Assembly: GCA_026770705.1 (NCBI GenBank)
Contig: JANJGN010000385.1
Location: 124,001-188,000, forward strand
Length of the DNA stretch: 64,000 nt
Direction: 5' to 3'
From: Isurus oxyrinchus
Taxonomy: Eukaryota
A program made the position numbers and the translations under genes. The notes under the pieces are model-generated. The model saw only the letters and a program-made list of their open reading frames with translations, was not told the DNA's origin and searched no databases. Below, piece after piece: positions 1 through 63,493 of this stretch (within the stretch, counting starts at the first letter, position 1; the number at the start of each line of letters is the position of its first letter).

Positions 1-1092
1 TGTTCCTGTGTAGCAGGTTCGAGGGGGCTGAATGACCTCCTCCTGTTCCTATTCAATGGGCAGTCAAAGCATGTGTCTGATTTTGGACATCGAACCCAAT
101 TCTGTCCTCAGGACACTGATAGAGGGAGAGACCAGTTATAGATCAATGCAGGAGGATTATTTATTTTCCCAATCTTTGATCCAAGCATCTCATCAAACAC
201 AGAGCGGAATACTGATCAAGGATGTTGGTCTCTGTAATCTGTAACACATCGCACAGTCCACCCATCCACTCAGCCTTCAGGATGGATGCTAAATGTACTC
301 TCCAAGTGTGAAGGACTAAAATTGTGGTTTATTGCAGCTATATCTCATTCTGTTATCAAAGCTGTCTCATCCATCCATGACATATTGAAGAAGATAAACC
401 TGCAACCAAATTTTCACATCATAATTTCCAATGTTCATTGGCAATATCAATGTAAACATGTCACGTTGTACTGATGAACTCCCATCATTGGTGGCACTGT
501 AGCACATGTTATCTTCTAAGCTGCAGAGAATTTCTCAAATCTCCAATCAAATTGTATCCCAGATTGTTGTTCGTTTCGCTGTTTAACAATGAAGTGTAAA
601 ATCCAAATATATTTCTGAAAATACATTTGACTACAAAATGGTGTAAATTTTACCAATCTCCTCTGTTCCAATTATCCACCGATCCTGCATTTCCTGAAGT
701 CTGCACTGGCTGATGAATATTCTAAACACTGACAGACAGGAAGGTGAATAACAGAATGAAAATTAACTCTTAATCACGGACACGGGATTGAATTTGTCCG
801 TTATGTCCTGGTACATCATCGAACGATATCTAAAGACATTTACAATCAGAATGGAGAGAAGGATGTTTCCAACAGTGAGGGACAATTCTGAAGGAGGATG
901 TTCGAATTGAAACCCACAGACAATCATCCTGGATAGATCATTCCGAAGAAATTCCATCAGATTGTAACAAGAGGTTTAAATCTATTTCCTGGGAGTGAGT
1001 TCCTGTGGATATTAGGAAGGTAAATTGGAGTTTTGAATGATTCTCCCATTCTGTATTCTCCCCACACTGTGTGTGTCTCATTCTTGCTCTGT

Positions 1093-1209
1093 TTATAAAT
1101 TCCCATAAACAGAATCCTTGGCAAAATCACAGTTTGCGTAAAGATCATCATCTGTATCAGGATTGACTCCGCGGTTAGATTTCATTTCCAGATCCTTCTC
1201 ATCTTTCTT
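1093..1209 (-). CDS. Terminal cytoplasmic exon with DLYANC and SVYGNL (ITIM consensus)
   Basis: tctattacag| KKDEKDLEMKSNRGVNPDTDDDLYANCDFAKDSVYGNL*; candidate minus-strand AATAAA at 328-333. Confidence 0.7.
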   Translation of the reverse strand, partial: KKDEKDLEMKSNRGVNPDTDDDLYANCDFAKDSVYGNL

Positions 1210-1304
1210 CTGTAATAGAAACAGAAATGATCAGAGTGACAATCAGAGTGATCAGTGTTTAGTATTATTGATCCAAATCGAAAATTCCACCCACAATACA
1301 TACA

Positions 1305-13200: not shown

Positions 13201-15269
13201 TTATTGAGAATCAGACAGTGTGTTATATTAAGCTGTGTTTTGTGTTAATATGTAAACGTCACAGTTTGTGTTATTTCCCATTGAGTGTTGAATGTGAATT
13301 GTTGAGTAATTATAACACAGCACTTACCAGAAACATGAAGCTGGGTTACAGGGTAATAGTTATGGCTCGGACCATTGTCAAATTCTATCCTGAAAAAATA
13401 AGGTCCTGCATCTTCCCGTCTGATGTTGTTTATAATCAGGGAACAGTCGCCATCTTTCAGGTCTCCAGACAGCCGGGTCCGATGGTGGAACCGTGGTAAC
13501 TCGTGACTGTGATCCTTGGAGTGAAAGGCAATGGGAGCCCAGGGAATCTGTTTCTCATTATTAAACCAGACTCCACCTCGCGGTTGGCTTTCCAAATGTG
13601 ATGGATAACTGTAATGACATGGAATCTGTACACACGAACCTTCCTGCGCTGTCACCTCTCGGGGAGTGTCACCTTTCCACTCTTGTGACAGTCCAACTGG
13701 GGAGAGAAATATCAATATTTAACTCTGGATGTTTTGAAGATCCATTAGGCTCAATATCCACCCCCTCCATCACTGGGGCACAGTGGCTGCAGTGTGGACC
13801 ATCTACAGGACACACAAGGTACTCCCCAAGGTTTCACAATGGATGGAAGAGAGTCCTGGACACAGGAGTGGACTAGTTCATTCTACATTGGCTCATGGTC
13901 CTCAGGACCCTGTTTAGTGAAGCCAGTGAGACAGTGTCACTGTGCCTTGTATTATAATGCTCCTGTGTAGCCCCTTGGATTTTTTTTTTTACAGTTAAGG
14001 CGCTATGTAAATATAATCTATTGCTCTCTGCTCATCTGGACCATTTGGATTCTTCATTTCAAGCGGACTGGTGACAGCTTCATGTTCAGTCCAAATGCAG
14101 CCTCTAATTATCACTTTAATGTCAATGATTAAATGTGACCCAACACACTGTCTACAAGACACACCAACTGAGATCCATTCAGTGCTGATTTACAAGACAG
14201 GACAATGGATTAGGAGCCCTCAGAACTCCCCCCATTATCACCGTCATGAATCACTAATTAGCCTAACATTCCTGTCTGCTCCTCAACACAGCTGATTGGT
14301 TAATCTGATTCAATCTGATTGGTGCACTTTGGACCTTCATTGGCTGAGGAATCTCGTTGGATCCTCATTGTTTAAGGAATCTCTTTGGATCCTCATTGTT
14401 TAAGGAATCTCTTTGGATCCTCATTGTCTAAGGGATTATTTCTGATCCAAACCCCATATTGTTGTATTGTTGATTCCGATGCAGCATTGTAGACTGACTT
14501 GTCCCCAAGCTCAGCACTGACCCTACTCCAGCAGACACTGTGAAACACACTAACAAAGCGCCTCTAGCCTGAGCTCTGCATGTGTCGAGAGAAAGACAAA
14601 TATACAAACTGAATATTGACCCATTTACACACGGACAGCTTTACCTTCCTTCTCTCTTTCAGTTATCTTGCTCCCTTATTGAAGTATCTGGCAAGGTGAG
14701 AATGGACAGGAAGTGTGACACTGAACAGCCTGTCTATTCTAGGAGCTGCTGTGTTGTCTTCATGGGAAATTCTGAATAAAATCAGCAAAAGACACATTTC
14801 AGGATATTGCTATCAGACACCTAACATAGGGAGAGACTTCATCCTCCAGTTTTTATCCCTGATTTTCTACTCAACCTTTTACCACCCTTCCCCCCATCCA
14901 CACTGACTTACATAGGCTCCCAGTCAAGCAGTACCTCCATTTTAAGATTCTCATGCTCAATTCCCAATCCCCCCAACCCCCTCTCCAGTCCCTACCTCTG
15001 TAACCTCATCCAGCCCCTTCACCCCTCTGAGATCTCTGCTCTCCTCCAATTCTGCTGTCAGACAGGGAGTCAGTGTATATCAGTGAGCACAGGGGTGATG
15101 GGTCAATGGGACTTGGTCTGTGTTTGTACACTGGCTCACTGCTGAATCAGTTCCCAATCACAGCTCAATAAGAATGATCTTTACAAAGACACTTTACCAT
15201 AAATCTGTCCAAGCTGACGATGATATTACCTTGGAGAAGTGACAGGAGGAAGTAAGATTTCCCGATCAT
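4189..15269 (-). CDS. Gene A: Siglec-like receptor (leader, V, 2 C2, TM); link to cytoplasmic exons uncertain
   Basis: Join complement 15230-15269, 13328-13696, 12172-12468, 5552-5833, 4189-4285. Open frame, GT-AG introns, exon sizes identical to the gene C counterparts. Confidence 0.82.
4505..5512 (+). mobile_element. Degenerate non-LTR retrotransposon (CR1/L2 superfamily) 3' portion
   Basis: Homologous to 52595-53320 (+) and 46920-47345 (-); shared tail ggcagctcaccaccaccttctcaaggg. Confidence 0.75.
5552..5833 (-). CDS. Gene A Ig domain 3 exon
   Basis: YTPQNLSINSLDMINASSINIIEGNSAVIICSVESFP...YQCVAENEHG; 282 nt, AG/GT. Confidence 0.9.
5960..6380. repeat. 33-bp minisatellite (CAGTACTGAGGGAGTGCTGCACTGTCAGAGGGT)
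   Basis: Period 33; ~5885-6250 is also duplicated at ~7769-8135. Confidence 0.9.
7390..8638. repeat. 33-bp minisatellite array
   Basis: STEGVLHCQRV-type ORFs reflect the 33-nt period. Confidence 0.95.
8640..11690 (-). mobile_element. CR1-type LINE ORF2 (endonuclease + RT), degenerate
   Basis: Fragments LNAHSIWNK..ETWL (EN), DLVMCN, SPGPD..NYRPVSLTS, YLDFQKAF, LYKALVRPHLEYC; flanked on both sides by the 33-bp minisatellite. Confidence 0.93.
11695..11955. repeat. 33-bp minisatellite
   Basis: Same unit. Confidence 0.9.
12172..12468 (-). CDS. Gene A C2-set domain 2 exon
   Basis: 297 nt, AG/GT, nearly identical to 40230-40526. Confidence 0.92.
12818..12855 (-). ncRNA. Minimal type I hammerhead ribozyme (Penelope-type), intron of gene A
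   Basis: Reverse complement GGT-CTGATGA-A-GAGTC-atacg-GACTC-GAAAC-GTTA-ACT. Confidence 0.7.
13328..13696 (-). CDS. Gene A Siglec-type V-set exon
   Basis: GLSQEWKGD...GSCVQIPCHY...GPYFFRIEFDNG; 369 nt, AG/GT. Confidence 0.93.
15230..15269 (-). CDS. Gene A leader exon coding part (MIGKSYFLLSLLQ)
   Basis: Exon 15230-15311 (82 nt, same size as in gene C), ATG at 15269. Confidence 0.85.
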
Positions 15270-20767: not shown

Positions 20768-20807
20768 ATGATCGGGAAATCTTACTTCCTCCTGTCACTT
20801 CTCCAAG
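20768..20807 (+). CDS. Gene B leader exon coding part
   Basis: MIGKSYFLLSLLQ, donor AAG|GTAATA. Confidence 0.8.
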
Positions 20808-28518: not shown

Positions 28519-28893
28519 TTGGATTACCACAAGAGTGGAAAGGTGACACTCCACAAGAGGTGACAGCGCAGGAAGGTTCCTGTGTACAGATTCCATGTCA
28601 TTACAGCTACCCATCATATTTAGTAGCAAGATCACCTGTCGGAATCTGGTATATGAGAAGGAATTGGGAAACATGGAATGAATGGCCTATAGCCTTTCAC
28701 TCCAAGGAACATAATCGTGAGTTACCACGGTTCCACCATCGGACCCGGCTCTCTGGAGACCTGAAAGATGGCGACTGTTCCCTGATTATAAACAACATCA
28801 GACGGGAAGATGAAGGACCTTATTTTTTCAGAATAGAATTTGACAATGGTCCGAGCCGTAACTATTACCCTGTAACCCAGCTTCACATTTCTG
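28519..28893 (+). CDS. Gene B V-set exon V1 (intact)
   Basis: 375 nt open frame, ccctag| and |gtaagt; YFFRIE Arg retained; distinct segment YLVARSPVGIWYMRRNWETWNEWP. Confidence 0.88.
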
Positions 28894-31015: not shown

Positions 31016-31076
31016 ATATCGGGTTCAGTGGATCCACAAACCATTCAGAGTTAAATATTGAGATTTCTCTCCCCAG

Positions 31077-31453
31077 TTGGACTGTCACAAGAGTGGAAAG
31101 GTGACACTCCACGAGAGGTGACAGCGCAGGAAGGTTCGTGTGTACAGATCAATGTCATTACAGTTACCCATCACATTTGGTAAAGAAAACACATGTCGGA
31201 ATCTGGTATATGAGGAGGTACATACAGAACAAATGGTCTAAATGGTCTATAGCCTTTCACTCCAAGGATCACAGTCACGAGTTACCACGGTTCCACCATC
31301 GGACCCGGCTGTCTGGAGACCTGAAAGATGGCGACTGTTCCCTGATTATAAACAACATCAGACGGGAAGATGCAGGACCTTATTTTTTCAGAATAGAATT
31401 TGACAATGGTCCGAGTCATAACTAAAACCCTGTAACCCAGCTTCACGTTTCTG
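31077..31453 (+). pseudogene. Pseudo V-set exon V2
   Basis: 1-nt deletion near 31150 (cagatcaatgt vs cagattccatgt), TAT>TAA stop at 31423-31425, donor GT>AT at 31454. Confidence 0.88.
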
Positions 31454-32266
31454 ATAAGTGCTGTGTTATAATTACTCAACAATTCACATCCAACACTCAA
31501 TGGGAAATAACACAAACTGTGACATTTACATATTAACACAAAACACAGCTTATTATAACATACTGTCTGATTCTCAATATCCTGGTGATAGCTTCCAGTT
31601 CAATCTGAAAGCAACCTCTAATACTCACTTTAATATCAATGATTAAATGTATTGACTGTGTACATCAATGTTATCAGGTTATCCACTCCCATCGATCTCC
31701 CTAACCCTGTATGACAGTCTTACATTTCGACAAAAGATAGATTCGCATTTCTATAGCGCCTTTCAACACCTCTGTACATCGCAAATGGATTCACAAGCAA
31801 TGAAATAATTCTTGAAATGAAGCCCTTGTTGTAATCTGGGAAACACAATAGCCAATTTGTTCACAGGAATCTCCCAGAAAAGGTGATGTGATCAATAACC
31901 TGATCACCTGCTTTAGATGCCGGTTCAGTGATTGGTTCAAATGGATTCTCTCCTGCTGGGAACAGGATAGAATTTAAATCTGGCAGATTTCGGAGAAAGT
32001 AACAAGCCAGTGTGTCAGGAACTGTGAGCTGCTCCCCCACCCTCACCTGGGATTGTCAATTCAATTGTCTCAAAGTGGAAGTGAATTCATCTGAGTGACA
32101 GAAACTCCACTACGTCTGAAAATAGGAAATTCTCTCCTGATCGTTGTAATCTCTCAGTTCTGATATCATCCATGTAAAAGTGCTTTCTCTTGTGGGACTG
32201 TGGTTTCTATTTGAACTGATGCTTCACGTTATATTTCTCTAAAAGGATCCATTCTCTGTCTGTTAG

Positions 32267-32561
32267 ATTTCACAGATAAACCCACGATATTCCCTGCTGA
32301 AATTATAGCAGGAAAGTGTGTGGATGTAAGCTGCACCTTCAACACAACGTGCAATGGAACAGCAGCACCTGTCTTAACCTGGGACACTCCCACTGACGTA
32401 CCTGGATCAGTCTCAAACACTGTAACTCAGCATGGTGTCACTCTGACCTATACTTCTGTTCTGACCCTGATCCCATCACTCAAACACCATGGACACACTC
32501 AGCTGCAGAGTGAGATATCCATCTGTTTCATCGGAGCGGACCCTCGTACTAACTGTGCAAG
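32267..32561 (+). pseudogene. Gene B domain 2 exon with 2-nt deletion
   Basis: 295 nt vs 297 in A and C; one AC unit lost at ~32495 (ggacacactc vs ggacacacactc); splice sites intact. Confidence 0.82.
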
Positions 32562-32884: not shown

Positions 32885-33037
32885 GACATCTGAATATCAC
32901 AATGAACAGAACAAGTTCCAGCAATGAGCTGTGGTTCGTGATTCCTCATGTTACATCCAGGGACACTGGAGACTATCAGTGTGTGGCAGAGAATGAACAT
33001 GGAGCAGTGGAGGGTTTCATAACCATCACTGTGGAAC
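32885..33037 (+). pseudogene. Gene B domain 3 exon, 5' half missing
   Basis: Homology starts mid-exon (HLNITMNRTSS...YQCVAENEHG) with the donor gtgagt kept; the acceptor and first half are replaced by repeat-like sequence. Confidence 0.82.
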
Positions 33038-34155
33038 GTGAGTGTACAAAGACTTCAACAGCTCTCTCAGATTCAAACACTACACAAACACACACAAATA
33101 TACAAACCTAAATAGACACGTGCAGACACACAATCCCACATGTATGAGCACACAAAAGGACACACTCACAAACAAACACACTAACACATTCTCCCCCATG
33201 GGTTACCTGACCTCCCTCAGTGCTGCACCGGAGAGTTGACATGGATTCTGGGAGTTGTATTCCCTTTCAAGTTTATGGAAGAACGCGGAAATTGCAAAGT
33301 CTATTAGACACCCAGATGCACAGAGTTTCTCACAGATACTCTCTGCCTCTCTAACTCTCTATCCTCCTTTAAAAAGCTTCCTGAAACCTAACCCTTTGAC
33401 CAGTCACCTGTCCCAACTCCTCCTTATGTAATTCTGTGTGAAATGTTGTTTGAGTATCTGACAGTAAGAGAGAGATGGAGAGGTTTATGAAGGAATTTCT
33501 GTTGGTGAAAAGCTTACATCATGTTCTCACCTTTCCAGAGCCCATTTTGCACATGATGTCCAATGTCCAAGTTCATAATGGGGATTGCCTATGTAAACGT
33601 CACGCTGCAGTTACACTCTGCCACCAGTGGTGGCATGGTAGCACTTAACCCTTGCATCTCCCAGCTTTTCAAGCAATTTCACTTCCCAATTTGCTACTAC
33701 TCACTTCAACCACTCCCTGTGGGAGCGAGTTCCACATTCTCCCCTCTCTCTGGGTAAAGATTGGAACTGTTTATTAAGCGGGGGGTGTAAGTCCGTGGGG
33801 GAGTCCATCTCGATCCTGCCCGATTCGCACACACGTCCGAGATGGATTTCCACCCGGCACTAAACGTTTCCAGAATTTTCTACAGCACAATCCTGTACAC
33901 AGCGATGGAGAGAAACATTGGACAGGGAGTCCAACAGCACAATGATCCATTCGCACCAATGTTCCACGCTAAGGGGAAAGTTCCGATTGTCCACTCTTAG
34001 AGTGTTTACAATGAAAACATTCATTCCACATTGAATCCCAGTGGATGGGTCAATATTACAGCAAATGTTGCAGTGATATGAAGCTTGATTGTTCAGCCAG
34101 AGTGAGAGATTGAAAGCGGAGAGTCAGTGATGATTTCTTTCTGTGTGTTCTCTAG

Positions 34156-34295
34156 ACAGTGGAGGAGAGATTCTGCACGTGATCCTGATCCTGGGAATAC
34201 GAGCTGTGATATTCCTTGTGGCTGTGGTTATCACTATCGCTGGAGTCTGTGTCTGGGAGAGACAAACAGTGAAAGGAAGTCGACAGACTGTTTGA
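34156..34295 (+). CDS. Gene B TM + short tail exon with intramembrane Arg
   Basis: ttctctag| SGGEILHVILILGIRAVIFLVAVVITIAGVCVWERQTVKGSRQTV*; phase 1; not reported in this frame in the ORF track. Confidence 0.8.
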
Positions 34296-48483: not shown

Positions 48484-50960
48484 CTGTCGCTGATTACTAG
48501 GTACATGTTAATGAGGTTACAGTGATAGGGAGGTTTGTAGGGGCTGGAAGAGGTTACAAAGAAAGGGAGGGTTGTAGGGGCTGGAGGAGGTTATAGTGAT
48601 AGGGAGGGTTGTAGGGGCTGGTGGAGGTTAGAGAGATAGGGAGGGTTGTAGGGGCTGGAGGAGGTTACAGAGATAGGAGGGATGTAGGGGCTGGAGGAGG
48701 TTACAGAGATAGGGAGGAGTGTAGAGGCTGGAGGAGGTTACAGAGATAGGGAGAGTTGTAGGGGCTGGAGGAGGTTACAGAGATAGGGAGGGGTGTAGGG
48801 GCTGTAGGAAGTTACAGAGATAGGGAGGGTTGTGCGGGCTGGAGGAGGTTACAGAGATAGGGAGGGGGTGTAGGGGCTGGAGGAGCTTACAGAGATAGGG
48901 ACGGTTGTAGGGGTTGGAGGAGGTTACAGAGAATGGGAGGGTTGTAGGGACTGGAGGAGGTTACAGAGAATGGGAGGGTTGTAGGGACTGGAGGAGGTTA
49001 CAGAGATAGGGAGGGTTGTAGGCACTGGAGGAGGTTACAGAGATAGGGAGGGTTGTAGGGGCTGGAGGAGGTTACAGAGAATGGGAGGGTTGTAGGGACT
49101 GGAGGAGGTTACAGAGATAGGGAGTGTTGTAGGGGCTGGAGGAGGTTACAGAGATAGGGAGAGTTGTAGGGGCTGGAGGAGGTTACAGAGATAGGGAGGG
49201 TTGTGCGGGCTGGAGGAGGTTACAGAGATAGGGAGGGTTGTAGGGGCTGGAGGAGGTTACAGAGAATGGGAGGGTTGTAGGGACTGGAGGAGGTTACAGA
49301 GATAGGGAGGGGTGTAGGGACTGGAGGAGGTTACAGAGATAGGGAGGGGTGTAGGGGCTGGAGGAGGTTACAGAGATAGGGAGGGGTGTAGGGGCTGGAG
49401 GAGGTTACAGAGATAGGGAGGGTTGTAGGGACTGGAGGAGGTTACAGAGATAGGGAGGGGTGTAGGGACTGGAGGAGGTTACAGAGATAGGGAGGGGTGT
49501 AGGGACTGGAGGAGGTTACAGAGATAGGGAGGGGTGTAGGGGCTGGAGGAGGTTACAGAGATAGGGAGGGGTGTAGGGGCTGGAGGAGGTTACAGAGATA
49601 GGGAGGGTTGTAGGGACTGGAGGAGGTTACAGAGAATGGGAGGGTTGTAGGGACTGGAGGAGGTTACAGAGATAGGGAACGCTGTAGGGACTGGAGGAGG
49701 TTACAGAGAATGGGAGGGTTGTAGGGACTGGAGGAGGTTACAGAGATAGGGAGGGGTGTAGGGACTGGAGGAGGTTACAGAGAATGGGAGGGTTGTAGGG
49801 ACTGGAGGAGGTTACAGAGATAGGGAACGCTGTAGGGGCTGGAGGAAATTTAAAATCAATATGCTGCTAACCAGGAGCCAATGCTGGTCAGTGAGCACCA
49901 GAGATGATAGGTGAGTGGGACTCAGTGCGAGTTAAGGCACGGGCAGCAGAGGTTCGGATGACCTCAAGTTTATGGAGGGTCAGGGCTAAGGGATTGCTGC
50001 ACTGTTGGAGGGTCAGTACTGAGTGAGAGCTGCACTGTCAGTGGGTCAGTTCCGAGGGAGTGCTGCACTGTCAGAGGGTCGGTGCTAAGGAAGTGCTGCA
50101 CTGTTGGAGGGTCAGGGCTAAGGGAGTGCTGCACTGTTGGAGGGTCAGTTCCGAGGGAGTGCTGCACTGTCAGAGGGTCAGTTCCGAGGGAGTGCTGCAC
50201 TGTCGGAGGGTCAGGGCTAAGGGAGTGCTGCACTGTTGGAGGGTCAGTTCCGAGGGAGTGCTGCACTGTCAGAGGGTCAGTTCCGAGGGAGTGCTGCACT
50301 GTCGGAGGGTCAGTTCCGAGGGAGTGCTGCACTGTCAGAGGGTTGGTGCTAAGGAAGTGCTGCACTGTTGGAGGGTCAGTACTGAGGGAGTGCTGCACTG
50401 TCGGAGGGTCAGTACTGAGGGAGTGCGAGACTGACAGAGGGTCAGTAATGAGGGACTGTGAGACTGACAGAGGGTCAGTAATGAGGGAGTGTGAGACTGA
50501 CAGAGGGTCACTATTGAGGATGTGCTGCACAGTCGGGGGGGTCAGTACTGAGGGAGCACTGCACTGCCATAGGTGGTTTCCTTCAGATGACATGAGAGAG
50601 AGGGTTAAACCTATTGAGACACGACCGACACTAACGAGGCTGCACAATAATTTAACCCTATCAGTGCCAGTAAATGATGTGAGGATGTCTTCTGTTTCCA
50701 TTTCTCTGTAGGGTAAACAGAACGTGCTGATTACTGAGCCCCGGAACACAACCAGAGACACAACTAGTGAGGGGGAGACCCCAGCTCCCCGGGGTCTCTC
50801 TGAAGGTGCATTGGGAGGCGATGCTGGACATGGAATCCCTAACAATCCCGACGAGCTTCTCTACGCCAATACCCAAGTCTTCAGGGTGCCCAGTGGTGAT
50901 GGGTCTGTCCACAGGGAAGAGGAGACGGAATACGCACAGATCAGCTTCAAGCGAAACTGA
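38102..50960 (+). CDS. Gene C: complete Siglec/MAG-like type I receptor (leader, V-set, 3 C2-set, TM, ITIM-like + ITSM tail), 8 coding exons, 569 aa
   Basis: Join 38102-38141, 39003-39371, 40230-40526, 42689-42970, 45000-45293, 46688-46784, 47482-47563, 50712-50960 = 1710 nt, open frame. All introns are GT-AG and phases are compatible (1,1,1,1,1,2,0). The N gap at 42011-42274 could hide an extra exon. Confidence 0.88.
38565..38685. promoter_or_regulatory. Putative haematopoietic intronic enhancer of gene C
   Basis: RUNX sites at 38570, 38579, 38652; E-box CAGCTG 38589; ETS CACTTCCTG 38626 and AGGAAGT 38662. Confidence 0.5.
39003..39371 (+). CDS. Gene C Siglec-type V-set exon
   Basis: ELSQEWKGDTPREVTAQEGSCVQIPCHYSYP...DGDCSLIINNITREDAGPYFFRIE. 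Shows the Siglec Cys pattern (B-E strand pair plus interdomain Cys) and the F-strand Arg in YFFR. ccccag| acceptor and |gtaagt donor. Confidence 0.93.
39843..39880 (+). ncRNA. Minimal type I hammerhead ribozyme (Penelope-type), intron of gene C
   Basis: GGT-CTGATGA-A-GAGTC-atacg-GACTC-GAAAC-GTTA-ACC: both core boxes, 5-bp stem II, 3-bp stem I, palindromic minimal stem III. Confidence 0.7.
40230..40526 (+). CDS. Gene C C2-set domain 2 exon
   Basis: DFTDKPTILPAEIIAGKRVDVSCTFNTTCNGTAAPVLTW...LCCRVRYPSVSSERTLVLTVQ; 297 nt, AG/GT, phase 1-1. Confidence 0.92.
40900..41660. mobile_element. CR1 3' tail (-) abutting Gypsy integrase C-terminal fragment (+)
   Basis: CR1 tail 40900-41338; PLKARFSG..VNYLIDTPD..INMLKRY at ~41500-41645. 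Confidence 0.7.
41872..42010. repeat. (CA)n microsatellite running into assembly gap
   Basis: Direct. Confidence 0.95.
42011..42274. other. Assembly gap (N)
   Basis: 264 N. Confidence 1.
42689..42970 (+). CDS. Gene C Ig domain 3 exon
   Basis: DGPQNLSITS...IICSVESFPASNLTW...DTGDYQCVAENEHG; 282 nt, AG/GT. Confidence 0.92.
43010..43298 (-). mobile_element. RTE-clade LINE 3' fragment
   Basis: MLRISWMDRKTNE..LTTIEGE..KR..W pattern of the RTE RT C-terminus. Confidence 0.7.
43299..44350 (-). mobile_element. Penelope-like element fragment (GIY-YIG endonuclease) with degenerate hammerhead
   Basis: NLIYCIHCSQCGLLYMGQTKHRLGDR..EH..LEEQHLIF..LN; hammerhead-like motif at ~43330-43362 with GAAA>CAAA. 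Confidence 0.88.
44350..44930 (-). mobile_element. L2-like LINE fragment with internal 37-bp expansion
   Basis: ELHWLPVRQ..FKI L2-type motif; 37-bp units at ~44500-44690. Confidence 0.7.
45000..45293 (+). CDS. Gene C membrane-proximal Ig domain 4 exon (MAG domain 5-like)
   Basis: KPEISQQSECTRRSEGVTCVCVATSNPAGDLTWHLPSANISG...SCSVQNPH. The C..CxC..SNP pattern is typical of the MAG/Siglec juxtamembrane domain. 294 nt, AG/GT. Confidence 0.88.
45640..46160. repeat. AT-rich ~38-bp minisatellite
   Basis: tatataaatgttacatagattacattgataaa units. Confidence 0.88.
46688..46784 (+). CDS. Gene C transmembrane exon
   Basis: tttacag| GRDSSKWTVGLFTAGIMLSVFLFEMFIFICVRK |gtaagt; 97 nt, phase 1-2. Confidence 0.88.
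46920..47345 (-). mobile_element. LINE 3' fragment (same family as 4505-5512)
   Basis: LRQHLPNPRPLPSRRTRAA..WNSL..HHLLKG. Confidence 0.8.
47482..47563 (+). CDS. Gene C cytoplasmic exon 1
   Basis: ttgcag| RKTAMEERVSGTSDIALTPSPLSVKRQ |gtacag. Phase 2-0 bridges the TM and last exon exactly. Confidence 0.72.
47699..48425. mobile_element. Solo-LTR-like element
   Basis: TGTTATGA...TCATGACA inverted termini; homologous to 54991-55820. Confidence 0.65.
48510..49850. repeat. G-rich 37-bp minisatellite (GGGAGGGTTGTAGGGGCTGGAGGAGGTTACAGAGATA), ~36 copies
   Basis: Direct periodicity. Confidence 0.96.
49970..50570. repeat. 33-bp minisatellite
   Basis: Same unit family. Confidence 0.92.
50712..50960 (+). 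CDS. Gene C terminal cytoplasmic exon with LLYANT and TEYAQI motifs
   Basis: ctctgtag| GKQNVLITEP...DELLYANTQVF...EETEYAQISFKRN*; typical Siglec two-tyrosine tail. Confidence 0.88.
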   Translation, partial: GKQNVLITEPRNTTRDTTSEGETPAPRGLSEGALGGDAGHGIPNNPDELLYANTQVFRVPSGDGSVHREEETEYAQISFKRN

Positions 50961-56120: not shown

Positions 56121-57001
56121 AAACAAAAACAGAATTACCTGGAAAAACTCAGCAGGTCTGGCAGCATCAGCGGAGTAGAAAAGAGTTGAGGTTTCGAGTC
56201 CTCATGACCCTTCAACTGTGAGGAGGACACAAAGGGGCTGCAGAGGGAGATAAATAGTTTCAGTGAGGGGACAAAAAAATGAGTGGTTGGAATGTAAGGA
56301 ATGAAAACGTCAGATTGTCCAGCTGATCCTACTTGTTCTGTTCTTATATTCTTATACAGACACAGGGTTTACTGACAGTGCACAGCAAAGTGCTGTTCTC
56401 TCACTTTGTTCCAACTTCCTCATTTTGTCTCACAGTGACACATCAACCCTTTCTCATTAAATACACAGAGGGAGCAGCACAGGAAGAGGTCATTCAGCCC
56501 AAGCAGAGCGTGTGGGCAGTTCCTCCCCAGGCGAGCAGTCGGACAGGTCCTGGGTAAGTAACGGAACGATTGGAATTCACTTCCACCACCAACACCGTCC
56601 TTTGTTGATGTTGACTTTATAAAGACAGATTCCAATGATTGATGCCTTTGAAAGATTTCTACTGATTATTGAGATCTGGGTGTGAGGCTCAAGTCTGTTG
56701 TACTGCACATCTTTCTAGCTCAAGGGATGAGGGAAGTGGAGTGACATGAGATTTTGGATGCTCTGAGGTGGTGAAAGGTGCTATACAAATGCAAATCCTT
56801 CATTGTTTTTCTTCCTTAAAGCCTTGTAACTCTCTGCAGAGCACCTATCATCCCACCGTGAATCAAATTAGTCAGTGAATACATTGTCTAAAAGGAGTTC
56901 TGATCTTTCAAGAGCTGTCGGACAAGAGGTGAGGACTCATTAACTCCTTTCTCTTTCAGATTTTGAGAGTGAGAAGTGAATGGAATATCTGGGAGTGGAC
57001 A

Positions 57002-57041
57002 ATGATCGGGAAATCTTACTTCCTCCTGTCACTTCTCCAAG
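57002..57041 (+). CDS. Leader exon D1 coding part
   Basis: MIGKSYFLLSLLQ, exon 56960-57041, AG/GT intact. Confidence 0.65.
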
Positions 57042-58767
57042 GTAATATCATCGTCAGCTTGGACAGATTTATGGTAAAGTGTCTTTGTAAAGATCATTCT
57101 TATTGAGCTGTGATTGGGAACTGATTCAGCAGTGAGCCAGTGTACAAACTCATACCAAGTCCCATTCACCCATCACCCCTGTGCTCACTGATATACACTG
57201 ACTCCCTGTCTGAAAGCAGAATTGGAGGAGAATAGAGATCTCAGAGGGTTGTAGGGGCGGGAGGAGGTTACAGGGTTAGGCAGGATTGTAGCAGCTAGAG
57301 CAGAATCTTAAACTTCAGGTGATGTCGGCTATTGGTCAGTGATAGATGGGGAGTGATGGGTTGAGCAGAAAATCAGGGAAAAAAACTGGGGGATGAAATC
57401 TATCCAGGTGCTAGGATTCTGAAAGCAAAAACCAGAAATTTGAGTCTTTTGCTGATTTTAGACAGATTTTCCCATGAAGACAACACAGCAGCTCCTAGAA
57501 TAGACAGGCTGTTCAGTGTCACACTTCCTGTCCAGTCTCACCATGCTAGATACTTCAATAAGGGAGCAAGATAACTGAAAGAGAGAAGGAAGGTAAAGCT
57601 GTCTGTGTGTAAAACTGTCAAATATTCTGAGTTATCATGATTGTCTCTGATCTGCTGCAGAGTTTAAATTTCACAGAATCTGAGCACTTTGCAGCTCAGA
57701 GAGAGACCATTGACTCACTGCCTGAAAGGGCGGTGGAAGCAGATTCAACAGGAACTTTCAGAAGGGGAACTGGATAAATACTTGAAGGGGACATTTTGCA
57801 GGGCTGTGGAGGAGAGAGCAGAGCTGAGCGTGGGACTAATTGGACAGATCTTTCAAAGCCTCAACTATTCACAATCTACATTAGTGACTTGGATGAAGGG
57901 ACTGACTGTACTGTAGGCAGATTTTCTGACTGTGTGGTGAAGATAGGTAGGAAATATATAAGCTGTGCAGGAAAGCAAGTTGTGAGGAGGACACAAAGAG
58001 GCTGCAGAGGGAGATTAATAGTTTCAGTGAGTGGATAAAAAAATGAGTGGTTGGCATAGAAGGAATGAAAATGTCAGGGTGTCCAGCTGATCCTACTTGT
58101 TCTGTTCTTATATTCTTATACAGACACAGGGTTTACTGACAGTGCACAGCAAAGTGCGGTTCACTCACTTTGTTCCAACTTCCTCATTTTGTCTCACAGT
58201 GACACATCAGCTCTTTCTAATTAAATACACAGAGGGAGCAGCACAGGAAGAGGTCATTCAGCCCAAGCAGAGCGTGTGGGCAGTTCCTCCCCAGGCGAGC
58301 AGTCGGACAGGTCCTGGGTAAGTAACGGAACGATTGGAATTCACTTCCACCACCAACACTGTCCTTTGTTGATGTTGTGACTTTATAAAGACAGATTCCA
58401 ATGATTGATGCCTTTGAAAGATTTCTACTGATTATTGAGATCTGGGTGTGAGGCTCAATTCTGTTGTACAGAACATCTTTCTAGCTCAGGGGATGAGGGA
58501 AGTGGAGTGACATGAGCTTTTGGATGCTCTGAGGTGGTGAAAGGTGCTATACAAATGCAAATCCTTCATTGTTTTTCTTCCTTAAAGCCTTGTAACTCTC
58601 TGCAGAGCACCTATCATCCCACCGTGAATCAAATTAGTCTGTGAAGACATTGTCTAAAAGGAGTTCTGATCTTTCGAGAGCTGTCGGACAAGAGGTGAGG
58701 TCTATTTAACTCCTTTCTCTTTCAGAGTTTGAGAGTGAGAAGTGAATGGAATATCTGGGAGTGGACA

Positions 58768-58807
58768 ATGATCGGGAAATCTTACTTCCTCCTGTCACTT
58801 CTCCAAG
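58768..58807 (+). CDS. Leader exon D2 coding part
   Basis: MIGKSYFLLSLLQ, exon 58726-58807. Confidence 0.65.
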
Positions 58808-60520
58808 GTAATATCATCGTCAGCTTGGACAGATTTATGGTAAAGGGTCTTTGTAAAGATCAATCTTATTGATCTCTGATTGGGAACTAATTCAGCAGTG
58901 AGCCAGTGTACAAACTCATACCAAGTCCCATTCACCCATCACCCCTGTGCTCACTGATATACACTGACTCCCTGTCTGACAGCAGAATTGGAGGAGAATA
59001 GAGATCTCAGAGGGTTGTAGGGGCTGGAGACGGTTACACAATTAGGCAGGATTGTAGCAGCTAGAGCAGGATCTTAAACTTCAGGTGATGTCGAGTGTTG
59101 GTCAGTGATAGATGGGGAGTGATGGGTTGAGCAGAAAATCAGGGAAAGAACCTGAAATCTATCCAGGTGCTAGGACTCTGATAGCAAAAACCTGAAATTT
59201 GTGTCTTTTGCTGATTTTGGTCAGAATTTCCCATGAAGACAACACAGCAGCTCCTAGAATAGACAGGCTGTTCAGTGTCACACTTCCTGCCCATTCTCAC
59301 CATGCTAGATACTTCAATAAGGGAGCAAGATAACTGAAAGAGAGAAGGGAGGCAAAGCTGTCTGTGTGTAAAACTGTCAAATATTCTGAGTTATCATGAT
59401 TGTCTCTGACCTGCTGCAGAGTTTAAATTTCACAGAATCTGAGCACTTTGCAGCTCAGAGAGAGACCATTGACTCACTGCCTGAAAGGGCGGTGGAAGCA
59501 GATTCAACAGGAACTTTCAGAAGGGGAACTGGATAAATACTTGAAGGGGACATTTTGCAGGGCTTTGAAGGAGAGAGCAGAGCTGAGCGTGGGAATAATT
59601 AGACAGATATTTCAAAGCCTCAACTATTCACAATCTACATTAATGACTTGGATGAAGAGACTGACTGTACTGTCGGCAGATTTTCTGATTGTATGGTGAA
59701 GATAGGTAGCAAATATATAAGCTGTGCTGGAAAGCTGGTTGTGAGGAGGACACAAAGAGGCTGCAGAGGGAGATAAATAGTTTCAGTGAGTGGATAAAAA
59801 AATGAGTGGTTGGCATAGAAGGAATGGAAAATATCAGGGTGTCCAGCTGATCCTACTTGTTCTGTTCTTATATTCTTATACATACACAGGGTTTACTGAC
59901 AGTGCACAGCAAAGTGCGGTTCACTCACTTTGTTCCAACTTCCTCTTTTAAACACACAGACACATTAACCCTTTCTGATTAAATACACAGAGGGAGCAGC
60001 ACAGGAAGAGGTCATTCAGCTCAAGCAGAGCGTGTGGGCAGTTCCTCCCCAGGCGAGCAGTCGGACAGGTCCTGGGTAAGTAACGGAACGATTGGAATTC
60101 ACTTCCACGACCAACACCGTCCTTTGCTGATGTTGACTTTATAAAGACAGATTCCAATGATTGATGCCTTTGAAAGATTTCTACTGATTATTGAGATCTG
60201 GTGTGAGGCTCAAGTCTGTTGTACTGCACATCTTTCTAGCTCAAGGGATGAGGGAAGTGGAGTGACGAGATTTTGGATGCCCTGAGGTGGTGAAAGGTGC
60301 TATACAAATGCAAATCCTTCATTGTTTTTCTTCCTTAAAGCCTTGTAACTCTCTGCAGAGCACCTATCATCCCACCGTGAATCAAATTAGTCAGTGAAGA
60401 CATTGTCTAAAAGGAGTTCTGATCTTGCAAGAGCTGTCGGACAAGAGGTGAGGACTCATTAAATTCTTTCTCTTTCAGAGTTTGAGATTGAGAAGTGAAT
60501 GGAATATCTGGGAGTGGACA

Positions 60521-60560
60521 ATGATCGGGAAATGTTACTTCCTCCTGTCACTTCTCCAAG
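60521..60560 (+). CDS. Leader exon D3 coding part
   Basis: MIGKCYFLLSLLQ, exon 60479-60560. Confidence 0.65.
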
Positions 60561-62287
60561 GTAATATCATCGTCAGCTTGGACAGATTTATGGTAAAGTG
60601 TCTTTGTAAAGATCATTCTCATTGAGCTGTGATTGGGAACTAATTCAGCAGTGAGCCAGTGTACAAACTCATACCAAGTCCCATTCACCCATCACCCCTG
60701 TGCTCACTGAAATACACTGACTCCCTGTCTGACAGCAGAATTGGAGGAGAATAGAGATCTCAGAGCGTTGTAGGGGCTGGAGACGGTTACACAATTAGGC
60801 AGGATTGTAGCAGCTAGAGCAGAATCTTAAACTTCAGGTGATGTCGGCTGTTGGTCAGTGATAGATGGGGAGTGATGGGTTGAGCAGAAAATCAGGGAAA
60901 AAAACAGGGGGATGACAGCTATCCTGACGCTAGGACACGGATAACAATGCGCTGTAATTTTGTGTCTATTGCTGATTTTAGTCAGAATTTCCCATGAAGA
61001 CAACACAGCAGCTCCTAGAATAGACAGGCTGTTCAGTGTCACACTTCCTGTCCATTCTCACCTTGCTAGATACTTCAATAAGGGAGCAAGATAACTGAAA
61101 GAGACAAGGAAGGTAAAGCTGTCCGTGTGTAAAGGTGTCAAATATTCTGAGTTATCATGAGTGTCTCTGACCTGCTGCAGAGTTTAAATTTCACAGAATC
61201 TGAGCACTTTGCAGCTCAGAGAGAGACCATTGACTCACTGCCTGAAAGGGCGGTGGAAGCAGATTCAACAGGAACTTTCAGAAGGGGAACTGGATAAATA
61301 CTTGAAGGGGACATTTTGCAGGGCTTTGGAGGAGAGAGCAGAGCTGAGCGTGGGAATAATTAGACAGATATTTCAAAGCATCAACTATTCACAATCTACA
61401 TTAGTGACTTGGATGAAGGGACTGACTGTACTGTAGGCAGATTTTCTGACTGTATGGTGAAGATAGGTAGGAAATATATAAGCTGTGCAGGAAAGCAAGT
61501 TGTGAGGAGGACACAAAGAGGCTGCAGAGGAAGATAAATAGTTTCAGTGAGTGGATAAAAAAATGAGTGGCTGGCATGTAAGGAATGAAAATGTCAGGGT
61601 GTCCAGCTGATCCTACTTGTTCTGTTCTTATATTCTTATACAGACACAGGGTTTGCTAACAGTGCACAGCTAAGTGCTGTTCACTCACTTTGTTCCAACT
61701 TCCTCATTTTGTCTCACAGAGACACATCAGCTCTTTCTAATTAAATACACAGAGGGAGCAGCACAGGAAGAGGTCATTCAGCCCAAGCAGAGCGTGTGGG
61801 CAGTTCCTCCCCAGGCGAGCAGTCGGACAGGTCCTGGGTAAGTAACGGAACGATTGGAATTCACTTCCACCGCCAACACCGTACTTTGTTGATGTTGTGA
61901 CTTTATAAAGACAGATTCCAATGATTGATGCCTTTGAAAGATTTCTACTGATTATTGAGATCTGGGTGTGAGGGTCAAGTCTGTTGTACAGAACATCTTT
62001 CTAGCTCAAGGGATGAGGGAAGTGGAGTGACATGAGATTTTGGATGCTCTGAGGTGGTGAAAGGTGCTATACAAATGCAAATCCTTCATTGTTTTTCTTC
62101 CTTAAAGCCTTGTAACTCTCTGCAGAGCACCTATCATCCCACCGTGAATCAAATTAGTCAGTGAAGACATTGTCTAAAAGGAGTTCTGATCTCTTGAGAG
62201 CTGTCGGACAAGAGGTGAGGTCTCATTAACTCCTTTCTCTTTCAGAGTTTGAGATTGAGAAGTGAATGTAATATCTGGGAGTAGACA

Positions 62288-62327
62288 ATGATCGGGAAAT
62301 CTTACTTCCTCCTGTCACTTCTCCAAG
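62288..62327 (+). CDS. Leader exon D4 coding part
   Basis: MIGKSYFLLSLLQ, exon 62246-62327; the downstream intron resembles gene A intron 2, so a V exon is expected beyond the window. Confidence 0.72.
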
Positions 62328-63493
62328 GTAATATGATCGTCAGCTTGGACAGATTTATGGTAAAGGGTCTTTGTAAAGATCATTCTTATTGAGCTGTGAT
62401 TGGGAACTAATTCAGCAGTGAGCCAGTGTATAAACTCACACCAAGTCCCATTCACCCATCACCCCTGTGCTCACTGATATACACTGACTCCCTGTCTGAC
62501 AGCAGAATTGGAGAAGAATAGTGATCTCAGAGCGTTGTAGGGGCTGGAGACGGTTACACAATTAGGCAGGATTGTAGCAGCTAGAGCAGAATCTTAAACT
62601 TCAGGTGATGTCGGCTGTTGGTCAGTGATAGATGGGGAGTGATGGGTTGAGAAGTAAATCAGGGAAAGAACCTGGGGGATGAAATCTATCCAGGTGCTAG
62701 GATTCTGATAGCAATATCCTGAAATTTGTGTCTTTTGCTGATTTTGGTCAGAATTTCCCATGAAGACAACACAGCAGCTCCTAGAATAGACAGGCTGTTC
62801 AGTGTCACACTTCCTGTCCATTCACACCATGCCAGAAACTTTGATAAGGGAGCAAGATCACTGAAAGAGAGAAGGGAGGCAAAGCTGTCTGTGTATTCTG
62901 AGTTATCATGATTGTCTCTGATCTGCTGCAGAGTTTAAATTTCACAGAATCTGAGCACTTTGCAGCTCAGAGAGAGACCATTGACTCACTGCCTGAAAGG
63001 GCGGTGGAAGCAGATTCAACAGGAACTTTCAGAAGGGGAACTGGATAAATACTTGAAGGGAAATTTGCAGGGATGTGTGAAAGGTGCTGGAGAGGAATTG
63101 GGAAAGAGCCAGCACATGCACGATGGGTCAAATGAGCTCCTCCTGTGCTGTATCATTCAACAATCAGAGAATTTTAGATCCTTATCAGCAAATCTTCAGA
63201 ATCCTGCTGAATCATGGATATTTCAGAAGGACAGTTAACAAGAGGTTTCTGGTATCAGCGTTTCATATGGGACCCAGTTCAGTTTGAACAAATAAACAAC
63301 GTCATCCTGAAAGTCATGAACCCACCACAGCGGCACCTCCGACACATGCAGAGCTCAGGCTAGAGGCGCTTTGTTAGTGTGTTTCACAGGGTCTGCTGGA
63401 GTAGGGTCAGTGCTGAGCTTGGGGACAAGTCAGTCTACAATGCTGCATCGGAATCAACAATACAACAATATGGGGTTTGGATCAGAAATAATC

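Follow-up and report, generated by a model that had tools for sequence, protein, structure and literature searches.

Recurring BC-C-CC' loop types on near-identical Siglec-type V exons in a shark gene cluster, likely exchanged by gene conversion

Genes and V exons of the window

The window is the whole 64,000-nt stretch of Isurus oxyrinchus DNA analysed here (contig JANJGN010000385.1, positions 124,001 to 188,000). Gene models built with homologous RefSeq models as guides placed genes A, B and C in it (Table 1); the named proteins closest to them come from Carcharodon and Cetorhinus, matching at up to 98% in V. Gene A, on the minus strand, has the order leader-V-C2-I-anchor-tail; its tail (1090-1210, minus strand) carries tyrosine motifs (LYAN, SVYGNL) and is unlike that of gene C, in which leader-V-C2-I-C2-anchor is followed by an ITIM-like tail. 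The order in gene B is leader-V1-V2-C2-truncated I-Arg anchor. No leader of its own was found upstream of B-V2; alternative use of tandem V exons through separate leaders was rejected, since one leader is common to the tandem V exons.

B-V2 has a 1-nt deletion upstream of its loop, an in-frame stop and a non-GT donor (AT), and the C2 exon of gene B is frameshifted. Because of these defects, gene B as assembled cannot encode an activating receptor: with a C2 exon of 295 nt rather than 297, its anchor is out of frame even when V2 is skipped. The truncated I-set exon remnant between the C2 exon and the Arg anchor of gene B (32887-33078) recurs in many Arg-anchor genes, and one public contig splices C2 directly to the Arg anchor, past the remnant. 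Four tandem 1.76-kb units with one leader exon each (57002, 58768, 60521 and 62288) occupy 56217-63077 and precede a single V exon just past the window end; a similar array of eight leader units lies at C385:410866-423208.

Table 1. Positions of exons, variable segments and related features in the window.
Feature	Position	Strand	Remark
Gene A, V exon	13328..13696	-	single V
Gene A, V variable segment	13533-13598	-	IPWAP class
Gene B, leader coding exon	20768..20807	+	
B-V1 exon	28519..28893	+	intact V-set domain, phase 1-1
B-V1 variable segment	28617-28688	+	BC loop, C strand, CC' loop by alignment; Trp/basic class
CC' loop of B-V1	28662..28688	+	three in-frame 9-nt x-Trp-x units
F-strand Arg of B-V1	28830..28832	+	aligns with the sialic-acid-binding Arg of CD33, Siglec-5 and Siglec-8
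B-V2 exon	31077..31453	+	broken; internal-V introns on both sides
Minimal conversion tract in B-V2	31167..31251	+	40/40 diagnostic sites of first-position (HLVKKTH) type
B-V2 variable segment	31174-31248	+	
Gene B, C2-set exon	32267..32561	+	frameshifted near end; 295 nt instead of 297
Gene B, terminal exon	34156..34295	+	membrane anchor with Arg, short tail
Gene C, V exon	39003..39371	+	single V
Gene C, V variable segment	39101-39166	+	IPWAP class
Gene C, last exon	50712..50960	+	two tyrosine motifs (LLYANT, TEYAQI), ITIM-like

The Siglec-like identity proposed in a preliminary description of this DNA was borne out by Pfam and PDB matches and by sequence features. Pfam matches were V-set and Ig_CD22, then C2-set_2; the best PDB matches by sequence were CD33-related Siglecs (Siglec-5, CD33, Siglec-8 and Siglec-7, E 4e-14 to 2e-11), and a fold search returned CD33/MAG among the best matches. 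The essential F-strand Arg is present in all four V exons of the window and is kept family-wide in 49 of 57 intact exons. V-domain cysteines lie in GSCV, IPC and DCSL, and C2 has a second Cys six residues after its B-strand Cys, a pattern that fits a B-E pair plus an extra pair predicted to link domains 1 and 2. Membrane features comprise the tyrosine motifs in the gene C tail and the Arg anchor exon, before which gene B is frameshifted. By every sequence feature examined, the family is Siglec-type.

Four differing hypervariable loops had been reported between SYPS and IAFHSK. All four peptides were found exactly as quoted, but the segments of A and C differ at only 4 of 66 nt and are one type, so the window has three types, not four. 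For B-V1, the start of the segment had been placed correctly and its end 2 nt too far (28690 instead of 28688). When the four exons were aligned, 45 of 75 columns varied in the segment versus 29 of 303 outside it (Fisher p 3e-19). Strand limits were taken from alignment to CD33, Siglec-5 and Siglec-8 and from the secondary structure of a modelled close two-V homologue (AlphaFold, pLDDT 74, pTM 0.50; V1-V2 linker pLDDT <50); the model and a Foldseek search gave the strand boundaries and the Siglec fold. On this basis the segment takes in the BC loop and the C strand, with its invariant G-x-W, as well as the CC' loop, and is thus broader than the CC' loop alone.

Loop types and their distribution in the family

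A 30-nt framework word had 555 exact matches in the assembly (control 0), the initial 2.77 Mb of a single contig accounting for 99, and protein searches gave about 1067 first-look candidates. Across C52:1-490000, BLAST found 34 V exons and the exact word 25; 555 is therefore a lower bound for the assembly, although haplotype redundancy among contigs may inflate counts up to about twofold. Motif matches in the assembly numbered 119 for the Trp/basic class and 296 for the Cys-starting class. The cluster lies in pieces on many contigs that contain repeated blocks, and a contiguous 1.1 Mb of it was sampled (78 V hits, of which 1 truncated exon was dropped and 77 were delimited; 57 intact, 20 broken). 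One gene (C52:1871383-1887050) has seven intact tandem V exons followed by a single C2 and an Arg anchor, and at C52:2282413-2296537 eight Cys-type V motifs follow one another. In several ITIM genes (C385:3096-7700 and others) both cytoplasmic exons are doubled in tandem, giving four tyrosine motifs. A lone 122-nt V-exon fragment (C25:36073437-36073558) lies outside the cluster, on a contig of 45 Mb. A screen of contig ends for exons of the family yielded no marker gene in the flanks that would place the cluster relative to the mammalian CD33-related genes.

Spliced V-C2 joints were present in contigs of three public runs presumed to be RNA, and spliced V-V and C2-Arg-anchor joints in contigs of one such run. 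These joints show that family members are spliced in this way, which does not imply expression of the window copies themselves; the V1-V2 joint of one gene, compared with the public contigs, was absent among the joints listed. Each V exon is complete and spliced as such, and all variation seen is germline variation in the assembly.

Variation over the genomic V paralogs was concentrated rather than evenly spread. In the 57 intact exons from contiguous DNA, the segment made up 20% of the columns but 48% of the entropy, with a mean of 1.31 bits in its 25 columns versus 0.36 bits in the 100 others. Entropy from pattern-selected loci was set aside in favour of contiguous DNA, since loci picked by the 30-nt word are bound to be invariant in strands D-E. 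The F-G stretch formed a second, weaker hotspot (0.6-0.85 bits). The earlier picture of a single hypervariable segment in otherwise invariant V domains thus holds in the window but weakens family-wide, since variation also extends to F-G and to the essential Arg within it.

The loops form about nine recurring types and no continuum; the segment was itself the basis on which classes were drawn. The 118 distinct intact V proteins, whose choice was to some extent shaped by the search queries, contained 58 different segments, 21-31 residues long; their BC and CC' parts occurred in 11 combinations, and F-G came in four types. One BC/CC' combination is common to 60 of the 118, so the repertoire is far less diverse than that of antibody CDRs. 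CC' loops of the Trp/basic class are built up from a 9-nt x-Trp-x unit, in frame and in 1-3 copies that are exact repeats in places, and slippage is the likely source of the 9-nt length change. The type GRSRVGI..KGIDGNPQPKWS was found only in broken exons, in several copies (C385:55409, 335604 and copies on C52), and is possibly a dead lineage or a donor pool.

Loop type was sorted by exon position. Among intact exons, the first segment residue is Cys in 25/25 internal and 0/32 first V exons; the four exceptions to this rule are all broken exons, B-V2 included. The internal-V Cys sits 7 residues after the B-strand Cys. CD33 C169 is described as forming an inter-domain bond (PMC7426717), with C163, from PMC13220637, six residues earlier; by likeness to C169, the internal BC-loop Cys would accept an inter-domain disulfide. 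Internal loops are Cys-starting and mostly neutral or acidic. Trp/basic loops have a net charge of +1 to +7 and 2-4 Trp; intact exons carrying them are all in first position, 16 of 17 as the outermost V of multi-V genes, and on contig C52 a Cys-type V lies within 5 kb downstream of 31 of 32 Trp/basic exons and upstream of none. The essential Arg is lost in 6/17 Trp/basic domains and kept in 23/25 internal domains.

Trp/basic loops had been assigned to the activating gene. Enrichment there was confirmed: 13 of 17 intact Trp/basic exons are on Arg-anchor genes and 4 on ITIM genes, and the carriers are 13/14 Arg-anchor genes with an intact V1, 4/8 ITIM genes and 0/7 genes with a gene-A-type anchor and intact V1, counts that include duplicates and are non-independent. 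An exclusive tie was rejected on account of the four exons on ITIM genes. The tighter correlate of Trp/basic loops is first position in a multi-V gene.

Mosaic exons, codon substitution and age of the loop types

Patchwork conversion, proposed earlier, was supported by mosaic exons, a recombination test and a double ancestry switch in B-V2. In some pairs, segments differing at 55% of bases sit on frameworks differing at only 2%. Neighbouring-site incompatibility was 0.159 versus 0.248 in shuffled data (p 0.0005), indicating recombination. Loops were <80% identical in 129 of 336 exon pairs, non-independent and including intact exons, in which both flanking introns were >=93% identical. B-V1 itself is a mosaic: its loop and upstream intron are nearest one V1 class, its F-G part and downstream intron nearest others. 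The loop of B-V2 is 99% identical to HLVKKTH exons, while its upstream intron is 98-100% identical to internal-V introns. Upstream of the tract, 100 diagnostic sites are of internal-V type, as are those from position 31511 onward with three exceptions; the maximal tract is 31036-31510, giving a tract length of 85-475 bp. The junction word of B-V2 occurs once in the assembly and gained no confirmation from the public contigs compared with gene B, and that one case may be an assembly or polishing chimera. Segment and framework distances were still positively correlated (Spearman 0.48-0.57), so that much of the history is whole-gene duplication. Taken together, these sequence patterns make conversion a well-supported candidate mechanism of loop exchange.

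Between the Trp/basic and the other classes, pS and pN were 0.56 and 0.52 in the segment, and 0.10 and 0.06 in the core; pS was thus raised about fivefold over the core along with pN, and the segment is deeply diverged at synonymous and nonsynonymous sites alike, while the scaffold that carries it is homogenised. Codon models were fitted on separate trees and are open to bias from recombination and short alignments. A single-omega fit to BC+C over all classes gave 1.8, with omega = 1 only about 2 lnL units worse; within classes BC+C gave 1.3 and 1.7, the commonest CC' class 0.87, F-G 0.8-2.0 (1.6-2.0 in two of three sets) and the framework core 0.84. In 8/8 partitions the support range either included omega = 1 or had it at its edge. 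Positive selection on the loops therefore appears borderline, with omega >1 in BC+C and <1 in the commonest CC' class. Of the earlier proposal, CDR-like diversification by patchwork conversion and selection, the conversion half is supported and the selection half is not shown, given the equally high synonymous divergence and the borderline omega; with the high framework omega, the loop variation may be neutral. Motif retention and positional sorting are better, though indirect, signs of function than omega.

Loop classes within this genome are about 30% identical to one another in the segment, and each is 59-95% identical to its best Carcharodon or Cetorhinus match. PWAP-type loops were found in lamniform, carcharhiniform, orectolobiform, sawshark and hexanchiform proteins and in one ray protein (six orders). 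Among 138 foreign V domains, Trp/basic types occurred in lamniform proteins only, an absence elsewhere that carries little weight, since an IPWAP-type sequence had been used to start the search. When the tree was built from frameworks only, 12 changes were required for the order label and 21 for the loop label (PWAP label, 16); on a segment tree the order label required 22 and the loop label 4, the latter being low partly by construction because loop classes were defined from the segment. A single framework group of PWAP rows was rejected (AU p 7.5e-5). As judged from these framework trees (78 columns, a quick method, mostly unresolved), frameworks follow lineage better than loop type.

Interpretation and comparison with known systems

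We consider it likely that the BC-C-CC' face, in about nine types, is exchanged between germline V exons as a conversion cassette. The segment forms the BC-C-CC' face of the Siglec-type V domain, occurs in few types over hundreds of germline exons and would be passed between them as a short cassette; the near-identical framework around it probably supplies the homology arms and is itself homogenised as exchange proceeds. Selection for different ligands may have retained the loop types over the long term. Cationic, Trp-rich loops would bind polyanionic ligands, some of them presumably without sialic acid because 6/17 such domains have no essential Arg.

Rapid point mutation under strong positive selection, as in CDRs, is an improbable source of the segment variety. 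It would account for omega >1 in BC+C (1.3-1.8) and in two of three F-G sets (1.6-2.0), and for Trp/basic types that are lamniform only among the 138 foreign domains and hence younger than PWAP, but not for a pS raised in step with pN, an omega of 1 at or within the support range of all eight partitions, or types that recur unchanged in many copies and across species. Hardly more probable is a neutral by-product, in which loops too diverged for conversion persist on a tolerant surface and have no distinct ligands. The PWAP motif is kept from hexanchiform sharks to a ray, Cys and Trp/basic types are strictly position-sorted among intact exons (the four exceptions all being broken) and loops do move between loci, all of which speak against it, even though heterology blocks gene conversion, omega is near 1 in the loops and 0.84 in the core, and 20/77 exons are broken.

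Assembly or polishing error in a repetitive cluster could produce apparent mosaics and an inflated copy number, as the many contigs with repeated blocks and the single B-V2 junction might suggest. We regard this as very improbable: other sharks have RefSeq proteins, independent of this assembly, with the same loop types and multi-V layouts, several copies share a given mosaic combination, and public contigs contain spliced junctions.

Beyond cassette exchange by conversion, which we prefer, a doubtful but possible extension is a lamniform germline combinatorial repertoire, in which hundreds of V exons are interchangeable scaffolds, loop and F-G cassettes are recombined among them with broken copies as donors, a distal cationic Trp-repeat domain meets microbial polyanions or membranes, and Cys-stapled internal domains still read sialic acid. 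If the cassette reading is true, the cluster is a natural loop-swap library on a constant scaffold, with types predating the shark-ray split and moved in short tracts, and a putative large inherited set of binding specificities. It would open to test the extent to which the BC/CC' face by itself determines Siglec specificity, and would show one way for receptor diversity to arise in the germline of the oldest antibody-bearing lineage. Searches of open-access literature found no published description of the shark cluster, although automatic RefSeq models of members exist. The ingredients, V-domain variability and conversion, are known; new are the unusual scale and the likely sub-exon cassette exchange.

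Chicken CHIR, teleost NITR/DICP and KIR/LILR are likewise large germline clusters with inhibitory and activating members and localised variability; unlike the shark genes, they do not have Siglec-type domains. Known Siglecs make up a small family whose members bind sugar through a single domain, and the shark cluster is one to two orders of magnitude larger. With CD33-related Siglecs it shares the F-strand Arg, the putative B-E disulfide, the extra Cys and a variable CC' loop; it differs in having hundreds of V exons, compared with about 15 human Siglecs (PMC8615218), as many as 7 tandem V exons in a single mapped gene, and loops that are recurring discrete types on a near-identical framework. 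According to PMC10477811 and PMC7250851, the variable CC' loop of human Siglecs is tied to glycan specificity and its basic and aromatic residues grip sulfate. By analogy, the shark segment most likely tunes ligand choice, and cationic Trp-rich distal domains would suit polyanionic targets.

Many shark models are named after Siglec-12 in RefSeq, and tandem V-set domains, as described for Siglec-12 in PMC6288428, are found in the shark multi-V genes; internal shark V domains may differ in their BC-loop Cys, which resembles CD33 C169. Primate SIGLEC11/16 and SIGLEC5/14 are closest in process: V-set exons undergo gene conversion between paired inhibitory and charged-anchor receptors, according to PMC5701461 and PMC6288428. 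Their conversion covers about 2 kb and keeps the binding of two genes alike, whereas in the shark tracts as short as 85-475 bp would replace the loop alone, and many genes would be involved.
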